From Escherichia phage PMBT57, in sequence record MG770228.1: a stretch of 64,000 bases of DNA. The stretch is one strand, 5' to 3'. This document shows, in pieces, positions 48,355 to 50,723 of this stretch. Under the pieces are notes generated by a model. It was given only the letters and a program-made list of their open reading frames with translations, was not told where the DNA came from and did not search any database. How positions within the stretch are numbered: position 1 is the first letter of the stretch; the number at the start of each line of letters is the position of its first letter. The position numbers were made by a program, and so were the translations under genes.

Positions 48355-49413
48355 ATGGCTAGTATTGATTCTATTGCCGTATGTAATCCACGGCAGGTAC
48401 GTAAATTTGTTGAACACTGTATCCGTTCAGGATTGGTTCCATTTATCACTTCATCTCCTGGTATGGGTAAATCTGCAATTGTTCATCAGATTGCAGAAGA
48501 CTTTGGTCTGAAACTGATTGACCATCGTCTGTCTACTTCAGCACCAGAAGACCTGTCAGGTCTGCCGCGTTTTAAAGAAAATGGTCGTGCTGAATTTGCT
48601 CCATTTGATGAGCTATTCCCACTGGAAGGGGATACTGTACCTGAAGGATTTAATGGCTGGCTCCTTTTTCTCGATGAGTTTAACTCTGCTCGTAAAGAGA
48701 TTCAGGCTGCTGCTTATAAACTGGTACTCGACCGTATGACTGGTCAGAAGAAGCTACATCCTTATGTAGCTATCGTATGTGCTGGTAACAAAGCAACTGA
48801 CCGTGCCATTACTAATAACCTGTCTACAGCTATGCAATCACGCCTTATTCATCTGGAAATGGAGACTGATTTTGATGTCTTTATGGAAGATGTAGCTATC
48901 CCTAACAAGTGGGATGAACGTGTAATTGCATTCCTGAATGCTAACCCAAATAAACTGAATGATTTTGAACCAGACCATCAAGAGAAGACTTTCTGTTGTT
49001 CTCGTACATGGGAGTTCGTTAACAAGATTGTTTCCATTCTCCCACCGGGACCGATTGATAGTGAAATGACTCTGCTGTTAGCAGGCACTATCACCTCTGG
49101 TGTAGCAACATCATTCGTCCAGTTTACTCAGGTCTATAGCAACATGGTGTCTTTGAATGAGATTTTGGATAATCCTAAGAAAGCTCGTATGCCTGAAGAC
49201 AATAACCTGTTGTGGGCTGTAGTCACTTCACTAATTAACAATACTGACGAAGATAATCATTCGAAAATCTTTGATTACGTTGAACGTATGCCGTTTACGT
49301 TCAAGGTTTTGTACTACCGTTCTGTAGGTAGTTTGGTTCCAGCTTTGGTTAAATTACCAAACTGGCGTGTTGCTGCAATCACATTATCTAAATACGTTCA
49401 TGGTTCCAATTAA
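48355..49413 (+). CDS. AAA+ ATPase (MoxR-like)
   Basis: Walker A SPGMGKSAIV, Walker B LLFLDEFN. Confidence 0.7.
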   Translation: MASIDSIAVCNPRQVRKFVEHCIRSGLVPFITSSPGMGKSAIVHQIAEDFGLKLIDHRLSTSAPEDLSGLPRFKENGRAEFAPFDELFPLEGDTVPEGFNGWLLFLDEFNSARKEIQAAAYKLVLDRMTGQKKLHPYVAIVCAGNKATDRAITNNLSTAMQSRLIHLEMETDFDVFMEDVAIPNKWDERVIAFLNANPNKLNDFEPDHQEKTFCCSRTWEFVNKIVSILPPGPIDSEMTLLLAGTITSGVATSFVQFTQVYSNMVSLNEILDNPKKARMPEDNNLLWAVVTSLINNTDEDNHSKIFDYVERMPFTFKVLYYRSVGSLVPALVKLPNWRVAAITLSKYVHGSN

Positions 49414-49579
49414 CAAGAAAGGAGTTACAGACCTCCTGTATGTTGCTGGCTTTAACGGTGAAGAAATTACCGTATATGCCCCAAGTCTGGCTGCTGCTAA
49501 ACAAAAGGCAGTTGAATACTTTCGTCCAAAGAAACGTGTAGCCCATACTATTTGGGTTCATCTCGCAGAGGAAAACTGA
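49400..49579 (+). CDS. small ORF between the AAA+ and vWA genes, 59 aa
   Basis: ATG in frame of ORF-track 49367-49579; overlaps both neighbours. Confidence 0.3.
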   Translation: MVPINKKGVTDLLYVAGFNGEEITVYAPSLAAAKQKAVEYFRPKKRVAHTIWVHLAEEN

Positions 49580-49580
49580 T

Positions 49581-50723
49581 ATGTCCATGACAGATGCTCA
49601 ATTAACCCGTGAATATGACAGATGTCAGGCTAAAGCCTTTATGGGCAAAACTGCTGCATTCTTTGGTTCACTGTTATGTTCTCTGAAGTTCCGTTGGGTA
49701 AAAGATGGCTGTGATACAGCACAAACCGATGGTGAGCATCTCGAATGGAATCCTGATTGGTTTGAGAGTCTATTACCTGAATCTCGTGTAACAGTACTCA
49801 TGCATGAACTATGGCATGTCGGCTTACTGCATTCTGTTCGTATGGGTTCTCGTGACCCAGAAGTATGGAATTATGCCTGTGATATTTATATCAACAATCA
49901 GCTTATTCAGGATGGCTACAGCTTTATAGGAATCGAAAATTGCTGGAAAGACCCTAAGTATGCTGGTTGGGCTGAAGAACAAATCTATGATGACCTCATG
50001 AGCAAACAGATACGTCCTCCTAAAGCATCAGGTGCTTTTGGGACTGGCTCAGGTGGTGACATGAAACCTTCCACTTCGAAGGCTAGTCAGGTGAATATTG
50101 TCAATAATGTAGTAAGAGCCATGCACCAACAGAAACTATCTGGTGGTTCTTTGCCTGGGGTATTACCTGGAAAAATGGAAGAAGTTATTACTCAATTCCT
50201 GAAACCAGTAGTACCGTGGCAGGTTTTACTTGAACGCTTCTTCAATGACCTGCAAGAAACTTACTACTCATGGCAACGGCCTAATCGTAGATACCCTGAT
50301 ATGTACCTACCATCCCCTATGGATGATGACGGTAGACTGGAACATCTGGCTTATTTCCTCGATACATCTGGCTCCATTAAACCTAAAGATGCTTTACGCT
50401 TTAGCTCTGAAGTGGCCTATGTAAAAGAGAAATATCAGCCTCAGAAGATGACTCTAGTTCAGTTCACTACAGAGATTGTAGATGAACAAGTCATTGAAGA
50501 TGGTGATAAGTTTACTGATGTCACTATCAAAGGACGGGGTGGTACTAGTCTGGTTCCTGTACGTGAGTGGATTATTAAGCATAAGCCTACTGCTGCCATT
50601 ATCTTTACTGACTTAGAAGTCAGACCGATGGAACCATTGCCATTTGATATTCCTGTCATATGGGTAGTTATTCGTAACCCTGGTGCACAAGTTCCATTTG
50701 GGAAAGTTATTAACATTACATGA
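49581..50723 (+). CDS. vWA-domain protein with N-terminal HExxH metallopeptidase-like region (DUF2201-type)
   Basis: HELWH motif; MIDAS-like DTSGS motif. Confidence 0.65.
   Translation: MSMTDAQLTREYDRCQAKAFMGKTAAFFGSLLCSLKFRWVKDGCDTAQTDGEHLEWNPDWFESLLPESRVTVLMHELWHVGLLHSVRMGSRDPEVWNYACDIYINNQLIQDGYSFIGIENCWKDPKYAGWAEEQIYDDLMSKQIRPPKASGAFGTGSGGDMKPSTSKASQVNIVNNVVRAMHQQKLSGGSLPGVLPGKMEEVITQFLKPVVPWQVLLERFFNDLQETYYSWQRPNRRYPDMYLPSPMDDDGRLEHLAYFLDTSGSIKPKDALRFSSEVAYVKEKYQPQKMTLVQFTTEIVDEQVIEDGDKFTDVTIKGRGGTSLVPVREWIIKHKPTAAIIFTDLEVRPMEPLPFDIPVIWVVIRNPGAQVPFGKVINIT

Follow-up and report, generated by a model that had tools for sequence, protein, structure and literature searches.

A MoxR-like ATPase and a DUF2201 protein encoded side by side in an N4-type coliphage, with a conserved small gene between them

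Most characterised pairs of a MoxR-type ATPase and a VWA protein serve in metal insertion or as activases (PMC13036017). In the NorQD pair, a finger of the VWA protein sits in the pore of the ATPase, and target binding is tentatively attributed to the MIDAS (PMC13036017). The VWA partners NorD and CbbO lack a peptidase domain and play their role in metal insertion or Rubisco activation. For group 2.2 jumbo phages, Iyer, Anantharaman, Krishnan, Burroughs and Aravind described in 2021 a chaperone/co-chaperone pair of a MoxR-type ATPase and an adjacent vWA protein that carries a metallopeptidase domain at its N-terminus; neither N4-like phages nor a small third gene are treated in that paper (PMC7824862). 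MoxR and vWA proteins also form the core of the ternary conflict systems described by Kaur, Burroughs, Iyer and Aravind in 2020, in which the third component is variable and a vWA-fused metallopeptidase is only a rare effector-position domain, placed C-terminally elsewhere in that paper (PMC7159879). The genes treated here are on record as well. In 2014, gp24 and gp25 were counted among the 14 core genes of N4-like phages and listed as '24 unknown' and '25 vWFA domain' (PMC4193335), and they have been annotated as 'putative ATPase, AAA superfamily' and 'vWFA superfamily' (PMC2784036). Together with the jumbo-phage pair of 2021, the genes, the domains and the pairing are therefore all already known. 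The first-pass annotation had called the function of this module unknown, and in line with this the literature searched contained no experimental work on the function of gp24 or gp25.

The window, the whole 64-kb stretch of DNA analysed here, belongs to an N4-type coliphage with 99.8% identity to vB_Eco_Jura and 97.9% to N4. Both ORFs of the first-pass annotation lie where it had placed them (Table 1) and are gp24 and gp25 of N4 (EF056009 / NC_008720), from which they show no substantive difference. DNA identity between N4 and the window is 97.9% across the entire 2.77 kb, and the order gp22-gp23-gp24-gp25-dCTP deaminase is the same in both. The pair lies in the middle region with genes of replication and nucleotide metabolism, while the late structural block is on the opposite strand. 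It is expressed with other middle genes, and its neighbours include superinfection-exclusion-like and other accessory genes. The early/middle region of N4 in which the pair lies also contains, ~2.3 kb upstream, the gene of the decoration protein gp17. Two terminator-like hairpins, both with annotated counterparts in phage AL25, are likely to mark the start and the end of a transcription unit gp21-gp27.

Table 1. Coordinates of the gp24-gp25 locus and its motifs in the window.
Feature	Coordinates	Strand	Basis
Terminator-like hairpin upstream of the pair	47516..47538	+	annotated terminator at the equivalent place in AL25
gp24, MoxR-like AAA+ ATPase, 352 aa	48355..49413	+	ORF; N4 gp24; phrog_1297; AlphaFold/Foldseek
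gp24 Walker A (P-loop) SPGMGKSAIV, residues 34-43	48454..48483	+	S34, P35, G38, K39 and S40 invariant in 34 homologues
gp24 Walker B LLFLDEFN, residues 103-110	48661..48684	+	D107 and E108 invariant in 34 homologues
Small gene, provisionally gp24.1, 59 aa	49400..49579	+	phrog_19202; same-slot orthologues; annotated in AL25
gp25, DUF2201 protein, 380 aa	49581..50723	+	DUF2201_N and DUF2201 matches
gp25 zinc-site motif HELWHVGLLH (H75, E76, H79, H84)	49803..49832	+	four residues invariant in 32 Schitoviridae-type homologues
gp25 putative MIDAS motif DTSGS (D261-S265), with T322 and D344	50361..50375	+	D261, S263, G264, S265, T322 and D344 invariant in 32 homologues
Terminator-like hairpin downstream of gp27	51526..51542	+	terminators annotated in the same intergenic region of AL25, after the gp27 homologue

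gp24 is composed of an AAA+ core (residues ~1-170) and a helical C-terminal domain (~173-349), and phrog_1297 'ATPase' matches it at 1e-136. Direct Pfam matches stay below the gathering scores, with 19.3 against 22 bits for AAA_5 and 19.6 against 21.2 bits for AAA, and the assignment to the MoxR group therefore has to be made through the predicted structure and the relatives. In the AlphaFold model (pLDDT 88.4), the Walker B residues D107 and E108 are found at the end of predicted strand 101-107. Three more residues are invariant among the 34 homologues, namely N145 at the sensor-1 position, R163 directly before predicted strand 164-169, which is the arginine-finger position, and R217 as a candidate sensor 2. 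Both Walker motifs, sensor 1 and the arginine-finger position of the MoxR feature set are thus all present. The model also has the two beta-hairpins by which MoxR proteins are defined (PMC13036017). The helix-2 insert is formed by residues 70-82 (strands 70-73 and 79-82, between strands 2 and 3) and the pre-sensor-1 hairpin by residues 132-145 (strands 132-134 and 138-145). The best Foldseek matches of the model are NorQ (E 2.8e-10, target TM 0.65), CbbQ 6l1q, dynein AAA modules and Rea1. The gp24 family profile finds midasin at E 0.003, and bacterial proteins of the family, which match the profile at 1e-50 to 1e-62, score 29-39 bits with AAA_5 and pass its cut-off. The predicted fold and these relatives support the description of gp24 as MoxR-like, as it had been named at first reading. 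Compared to NorQ and CbbQ, with which it shares 14-17% sequence identity, gp24 is longer at its C-terminus by a helical extension of ~100 residues, with 352 aa in total where their chains have ~250 aa.

In gp25, a zincin-like N-terminal domain (residues 1-245) is joined by a linker, partly of low confidence, to a compact VWA domain (256-380). The HMM search that the first-pass annotation had proposed as a check, which left the ATPase below threshold for AAA_5, is unambiguous for this protein. Of the two Pfam models of the family (PF13203 and PF09967), DUF2201_N matches residues 10-245 at 1.3e-86 with 291 bits (cut-off 23.2) and DUF2201 matches residues 256-380 at 1.4e-46 with 158 bits (cut-off 26.4), which bears out the DUF2201-type arrangement suggested before. 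Members of this family, which we take to be COG3864, carry the JGI label 'predicted metal-dependent peptidase', and in bacteria they likewise stand beside a MoxR-like ATPase. The C-terminal domain has a Rossmann-like VWA fold, and VWA matches filled both fold-search lists. At ~125 aa it is unusually small. The residues DxSxS...T...D form a putative metal-coordinating MIDAS set and are found where the predicted strands 256-261 and 338-343 end. The zinc-site residues, with HELWH at 75-79, are located on predicted helix 66-81 and at the start of helix 84-87. All four motifs quoted in the first-pass annotation are present in the two proteins, and since their key residues are invariant across 32-34 homologues at merely 51-86% identity to the query, they are not a chance occurrence.

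The relationship of the N-terminal domain to known peptidases is marginal, and we describe it as zincin-like from its motif and profile matches. Single-sequence searches of the PDB returned noise only, and the profile of full-length gp25 returned nothing. The profile of the N-terminal domain aligns to the edge strand and the HExxH helix of minigluzincins (MJ1213, E 1e-3; projannalysin) and of M48 peptidases (HtpX, BepA), with one M48 peptidase at 2e-3, a likeness confined to ~40-55 residues. Seven more M48-type chains are among its weaker matches, and sub-threshold Pfam matches to M48 and SprT-like families occur in four different homologues. Compared to these peptidases, gp25 is a soluble protein with a third histidine five residues past HExxH, an invariant NxACDxxIN and the fusion to VWA. 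HExxH is intact in every phage copy examined. The glutamate is gone solely in a Campylobacterota chromosomal clade, which retains HxxxHxxxxH and MIDAS, and the family as a whole can therefore not depend on proteolysis. In some copies (L017, L018) it is instead the third histidine that is absent. Database labels in RefSeq N4 and PHROG 1314 give gp25 as an HNH endonuclease, a reading that these labels alone speak for and to which we assign next to no probability. gp25 has no HNH Pfam match, the two DUF2201 models span its full length, and its structure is a VWA domain with a helical zincin-like domain. The real HNH gene of the locus is the neighbouring gp22, with a Pfam HNH_3 match of 8.6e-20. 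Likewise, we reject the statement in PMC9525291 that gp24 and gp25 are rIIA/rIIB-like.

The first-pass annotation had described the two-gene module as recurrent in phages, and this is borne out by several hundred phage sequences, with relatives of gp25 in 681 records and of gp24 in 832. As two of the 14 core genes, gp24 and gp25 are common to all N4-like phages. They stand next to each other in Schitoviridae, in cyanophage S-TIM66 and in the 361-kb jumbo phage Turkey3. Relatives of gp25 are also found in the jumbo-type phages PBECO4, XaC1 and Atu_ph07. The homologues in jumbo phages are larger, with 442 and 469 aa in Turkey3, and only ~25-29% identical to the N4 pair. Identity of gp24 and gp25 across genera is above 50%. 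In bacterial or MAG loci, a gp24-family ATPase directly adjoins the DUF2201 gene in 27 of 29 cases, often with overlapping stop and start. The pair also forms a native chromosomal operon, surrounded by housekeeping genes in Aliarcobacter and by genes of non-phage type in Sulfuricurvum, and the Campylobacterota loci have another third gene of ~235 aa downstream. In rV5-like phages the two genes are non-adjacent and the MoxR gene lies elsewhere in the genome. The 'anti-sigma factor' gene upstream of the metallopeptidase in phage WalterGehring was considered as a gp24 relative and discarded, with an hhalign probability of 0.2 and no Pfam match. As a side observation, the gene neighbourhood of the pair points in two directions, to nucleotide metabolism and to virion or chaperone genes.

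Starting from the observed identities, motifs and folds of the parts and from their tight linkage and conservation, we consider it probable that the pair is an ATP-regulated chaperone or processing protease of the middle infection phase. It would act on a conserved protein client, and a phage-encoded assembly or complex is a likelier client than a host-specific target. The same combination of chaperone and peptidase was proposed earlier for jumbo phages (PMC7824862). Contact between gp24 and gp25 we infer from gene linkage and from analogy, and the formation of a complex, proteolysis and the nature of the client are to be read in the same way. By analogy to solved MoxR-VWA pairs such as NorQ-NorD, gp24 would form an ATP-hydrolysing hexameric ring onto which gp25 docks with its VWA domain. 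With its MIDAS metal, gp25 may then capture an acidic residue of the client, and ATP hydrolysis would pull or twist gp25 together with the bound client. The client could subsequently be cleaved by the HExxH domain, or remodelling could toggle this domain. The pair is a reasonable target for phage functional genomics, since a conserved protease or chaperone driven by ATP would be fundamental to the infection cycle.

The same machine might serve virion morphogenesis by assisting the assembly of structural proteins (capsid, tail or packaged proteins) and maturing them by proteolysis, which we regard as a possible, if doubtful, role. This is the proposal of Iyer et al. for jumbo phages, and a MoxR-vWA pair is needed in tail development of Acidianus two-tailed virus (PMC7824862). 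In roseophages, the 'second structural module' of virion proteins adjoins the gp24 and gp25 homologues (PMC4193335). S-TIM66 has an Hsp20 gene directly upstream of the pair and a virion structural protein gene just downstream, and the proximity of gp17 in N4 fits this role, too. However, the pair is placed in the middle region and outside the late structural block of the other strand. It is also shared by podoviruses, myoviruses and jumbo phages of unrelated virion design, and it is present in the chromosomal operons of Aliarcobacter and Sulfuricurvum, where no virion exists.

The kinship to NorQ and CbbQ, the best structural matches of gp24, raises a different explanation. Since most of the MoxR-VWA pairs characterised so far insert metals or activate enzymes, gp24 and gp25 might be a non-proteolytic metallochaperone or activase like NorQD, CbbQO, CoxDE and the Mg/Co chelatases, with the histidine-rich site as metal-binding or donor site. 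The client could be a neighbouring enzyme of nucleotide metabolism. A dCTP deaminase gene lies directly downstream of the pair in most Schitoviridae examined, and a thymidylate synthase gene is found within ~2 kb in three unrelated phage lineages. The Campylobacterota clade, in which the putative metal ligands outlast the catalytic glutamate, is consistent with such a role. For the phage proteins we nevertheless consider it quite unlikely. The catalytic glutamate is kept in all phage copies examined and is invariant in Schitoviridae, which is hard to explain without catalysis. The loss of the third histidine in the two copies named above argues against a strict His-triad donor site, and the synteny with nucleotide metabolism is weakened by the clustering that early and middle phage genes show anyway.

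Expression with the middle genes and the superinfection-exclusion-like and accessory neighbours would also suit a protease for host takeover or counter-defence, which destroys a host defence or housekeeping protein. MoxR-vWA pairs are central to bacterial conflict systems (PMC7159879), and host proteins are the suggested targets of SprT-type and ArdC-type phage zincins (PMC7824862). The N4 locus shares with the ternary conflict systems the core of MoxR and vWA, with a variable third component. However, the N4 locus has none of the third components that define them (VMAP, inactive STAND, FtsH, beta-propeller), the peptidase-like domain of gp25 is N-terminal in contrast to the C-terminal placement in those systems, and searches of the locus gave no meaningful match in PADLOC and none in NCBIfam. 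Host-directed genes are usually patchy and fast-evolving, whereas gp24 and gp25 are a strictly conserved core set across Schitoviridae of very different hosts, and bacterial chromosomes carry copies outside any phage. We therefore judge a host target of this kind unlikely.

The possible 59-aa ORF that the first-pass annotation had seen bridging the two genes turns out to be a real and conserved gene, gp24.1. Its ATG lies inside gp24, giving an overlap of 14 nt, and its stop comes 1 nt before the gp25 ATG; an alternative start, GTG at 49367, would give 70 aa. phrog_19202 matches gp24.1 at 2e-33, while Pfam, NCBIfam and PADLOC have no match. tblastn finds relatives in N4-like phages of Achromobacter, Pseudomonas, Erwinia and Burkholderia (E 2e-14 to 2e-4), and orthologues occupy the same slot in four other Schitoviridae lineages, Dongdastvirus, Zurivirus, Yonginvirus and Burkholderia phage HN05, with identities of 45-56% by tblastn and 34-55% by alignment. 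They share an acidic C-terminal tail with the consensus ...ELAEE. A frameshift fusion of gp24 and gp24.1 was considered and dropped, since the small gene is a separate cistron in the other genera examined, with its start at the ATPase stop or up to ~3 nt past it. The gene is annotated in AL25 and missing from the N4 reference record, and its addition makes up three corrections to existing annotation together with the HNH label of gp25 and the rII-like statement.

Within the proposed chaperone/protease, the 59-aa protein may be an accessory, lineage-variable third subunit that is made by translational coupling and acts as adaptor, regulator or client. A bolder version would be a phage ternary MoxR system in which the acidic tail makes the small protein a MIDAS-docking regulator or adaptor, and in which the machine matures or activates an enzyme of dTMP synthesis (dCTP deaminase, ThyX) and no virion protein. 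This version, to which we are led by the thymidylate synthase synteny in three unrelated lineages and by the fact that the proteins structurally closest to gp24 act as activases, is a long shot; if true, a virus would encode a metallochaperone or activase that serves nucleotide metabolism. gp24.1 is dispensable, because G7C-like phages do without it, as seen in Gamaleyavirus IME11. In Litunavirus and one roseophage, the slot between the two genes is filled by unrelated ORFs of 172 and 190 aa.

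The two open reading frames described in the first-pass annotation as a MoxR-like AAA+ ATPase with a vWA/HExxH partner are gp24 and gp25 of coliphage N4. Both were located at the positions assigned to them, together with all motifs quoted for them, and the 2.77-kb stretch across the pair shows 99.8% identity to Escherichia phage vB_Eco_Jura and 97.9% to reference coliphage N4. The observation is confirmed and its interpretation supported. The finding itself is ordinary, as it re-identifies genes that are annotated and have been discussed before in a well-known phage. The first N4 annotation called them merely 'similar to S. 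coel. protein 1/2'. In 2009, they were listed as 'putative ATPase, AAA superfamily' and 'vWFA superfamily' (PMC2784036), and both are middle genes among the 14 core genes of N4-like phages (PMC4193335). Of remaining interest are the biological task of this module, which is conserved in many phages, and three points of annotation to be corrected: a 59-aa gene is left out, HNH is wrongly assigned to gp25, and one paper wrongly applies the term rII.

For gp24 and 33 homologues (52–79% identity), no variation is found in Walker A (G38, K39, S40) and Walker B (D107, E108); the same holds for N145 (sensor-1 position) and R163 (right before strand 5). As judged from the sequences, the quoted motifs of gp24 and gp25 are not chance matches. 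HMM searches, suggested earlier as a check, identify the partner gp25 but, strictly taken, not gp24, which stays under the curated Pfam cut-offs (AAA_5, 19.3 versus 22 bits; AAA, 19.6 versus 21.2). That gp24 is MoxR-like is borne out by three lines of evidence, the predicted fold, two hairpins and the relatives of its family profile. The AlphaFold model (pLDDT 88.4) has its best solved matches in the MoxR ATPases NorQ (E 2.8e-10, TM 0.65 normalised to target) and CbbQ, followed by dynein AAA modules, Rea1/midasin and the MoxR protein CHU_0153. Two beta-hairpins are modelled, one separating strand 2 from strand 3 (70-73/79-82) and one ahead of sensor 1 (132-134/138-145). In the model, these are the helix-2 insert and the pre-sensor-1 hairpin typical of the MoxR clade, as described in PMC13036017. 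The family profile matches midasin in the PDB (E 0.003) and bacterial ATPases at 1e-50 to 1e-62, which themselves exceed the AAA_5 cut-off with 29–39 bits. Compared to NorQ, gp24 is ~100 residues longer because of a helical C-terminal extension.

In gp25 and 31 homologues (51–86% identity), the HExxHxxxxH residues H75, E76, H79 and H84 and the full MIDAS set D261, S263, S265, T322 and D344 show no variation. The Pfam models DUF2201_N (1.3e-86) and DUF2201, a VWA-like domain (1.4e-46), cover the whole protein, in agreement with the proposed DUF2201-type arrangement. The model (pLDDT 79.7) consists of a helical N-terminal domain, a glycine-rich linker (~145-255) of partly low confidence and a compact C-terminal alpha/beta domain, and VWA matches take up both result lists of the structure searches. 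A profile built from 14 diverse N-terminal domains matches minigluzincin MJ1213 (E 1e-3) and an M48 peptidase (E 2e-3), with BepA, HtpX and projannalysin among the weaker matches; all of these cover the edge strand and the HExxH helix. Because of the MJ1213 and M48 matches and of sub-threshold Peptidase_M48 and SprT-like Pfam matches recurring in four different gp25 homologues, assignment of the N-terminal domain as a putative zincin is supported at the sequence level. The names 'HNH endonuclease' and 'homing endonuclease', given to gp25 and many homologues (RefSeq NC_008720.1, PHROG 1314-derived), are a propagated misannotation, as gp25 consists of DUF2201_N plus VWA and has no HNH domain; RefSeq N4 now lists gp24 as 'ATPase' and gp25 under the wrong HNH label. 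The description of N4 gp24 and gp25 as 'rIIA- and rIIB-like proteins' in work on Vibrio phage phi50-12 (PMC9525291) is also wrong, the rIIA-like protein of N4 being gp33.

The 59-aa ORF suggested to bridge the two genes is, by sequence comparison, a real gene. It lacks annotation in N4, is annotated in the comparison phage AL25 and matches phrog_19202. Its tblastn orthologues (45–56% identity, best E 2e-14) reside in N4-like phages of Achromobacter, Pseudomonas putida, Erwinia and Burkholderia, and in each of them the small gene abuts both the ATPase and the DUF2201 gene. Conserved are Y14, Y26-A27, A33, Q35, F41, P43, K45 and an acidic C-terminal tail. G7C-like Gamaleyavirus phages have no small gene and a 7-nt gap in its place; in Litunavirus Pa2 and roseophage R7L, the slot is filled by unrelated ORFs (172 and 190 aa). 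In our reading, the slot provides a third component that is accessory and varies between lineages.

Relatives of gp25 occur in 681 phage records and those of gp24 in 832, distributed over Schitoviridae, rV5-like phages, Asteriusvirus-type and other jumbo phages, and cyanophages. The inspected records labelled Campylobacter phages are classified as Vequintavirus. The pair is adjacent in cyanophage S-TIM66, with Hsp20 upstream and ThyX nearby, and in the 361-kb jumbo phage Turkey3, with thymidylate synthase 1.6 kb downstream; the module recurs in phages, as had been proposed. In rV5-like phages, the two genes are not adjacent and the MoxR ATPase gene lies elsewhere in the genome. An 'anti-sigma factor' gene directly upstream of the metallopeptidase-VWA gene in rV5-like Escherichia phage WalterGehring (L008, 2424-3401) was rejected as gp24 counterpart, having neither a Pfam match nor similarity to gp24. 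Among prokaryotes, scanned with one genome per species, 29 loci carry a gp25 relative, directly adjoined by a gp24-family ATPase in 27, where the stop codon of one gene usually overlaps the start codon of the next. Some are native chromosomal operons amid non-phage genes, which are housekeeping genes in Aliarcobacter and chromosomal genes of other kinds in Sulfuricurvum.

The function had been called unknown, and our literature search found no experimental data on gp24 or gp25. Iyer et al. (2021) reported the same type of pair, MoxR with metallopeptidase-vWA, in group 2.2 jumbo phages and proposed virion assembly with proteolytic processing, with the precedent of a MoxR-vWA pair required for tail development of Acidianus two-tailed virus (PMC7824862). 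A role confined to the virion is disfavoured by the middle-phase location of the genes, by the presence of the pair in phages with unrelated virions and by its bacterial operons, where no virus is involved. In NorQD, the pore of the ATPase takes up a finger of the VWA protein, whose MIDAS presumably binds the target (PMC13036017). By analogy, gp24 would be an ATP-driven hexamer gripping gp25 via its VWA domain, the gp25 MIDAS would grab a client protein by an acidic residue, and ATP hydrolysis would remodel the complex, with the HExxH domain either cutting the client or being gated by remodelling. We consider this molecular picture somewhat favoured. The HExxH domain is intact in all phage copies examined. 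Evidence on client identity is mixed; as the pair is strictly conserved in phages whose hosts differ widely, the client is probably conserved and phage-encoded rather than a host-specific defence target.

In the chromosomal Campylobacterota loci (L031, L034, L036, L040-L042), the catalytic Glu is exchanged for I, V or T, and the His residues (HxxxHxxxxH) and the DxSxS MIDAS motif are kept. Here, the pair is followed by a conserved gene for a helical protein of ~235 aa, for which Pfam gave no match, so that the operon has three genes. In two further copies, it is the third His that is missing (D in L017, F in L018). As this one bacterial clade has lost the catalytic Glu and the nearest structural relatives act as activases or in metal insertion, a non-proteolytic metallochaperone is a less likely but live alternative.

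Gene order and sequence features around gp24 and gp25
Order	Feature	Position	Remark
1	gp18	46085-46399	P22 superinfection-exclusion gp17 homologue, PF17420, 2.4e-56
2	gp19		
3	gp20	46673-47509	SPFH/Band 7 lipoprotein, Pfam 1.7e-23
	Terminator-like hairpin	47516-47538	strong; flanks gp21-gp27 on one side
4	gp21		
5	gp22		HNH endonuclease
6	gp23		
7	gp24	48355-49413 (+)	352 aa
8	59-aa ORF	49400-49579 (+)	ATG 14 nt inside gp24 end; stop one base before gp25 ATG
9	gp25	49581-50723 (+)	380 aa
10	dCTP deaminase		
11	gp27		
	Terminator-like hairpin	51526-51542	strong; flanks gp21-gp27 on other side
12	gp28		
13	gp29		
14	ThyX		
	Thymidylate-synthase/dCTP-deaminase proximity	50730-51236, 52203-53201	also loci L010, L011, L013, L044

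Bracketed by the two predicted hairpins, gp21 to gp27 probably form a single transcription unit. In AL25, terminators are annotated after the gp20 and gp27 homologues, i.e. in the matching intergenic regions. Terminator-like sites are ~3-fold more common in the 6.3-kb region than in shuffled sequences (11 versus 3.8). The gp18 homologue shares the early/middle block with the pair, and labels for gp20 homologues conflict ('lipoprotein' in RefSeq N4, 'serine protease' in AL25). A dCTP deaminase gene lies directly downstream of the pair in most Schitoviridae examined, and ThyX or ThyA is found within ~2 kb downstream in three unrelated lineages (Schitoviridae, S-TIM66 and Turkey3). The sign of the GC skew flips near 38-40 kb of the window, where GC content falls to 0.37-0.38; we suspect that this marks the switch between late genes and + strand early-middle genes of N4-type genomes. 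Compared with the numbering of the N4 reference, the window is a circular permutation.
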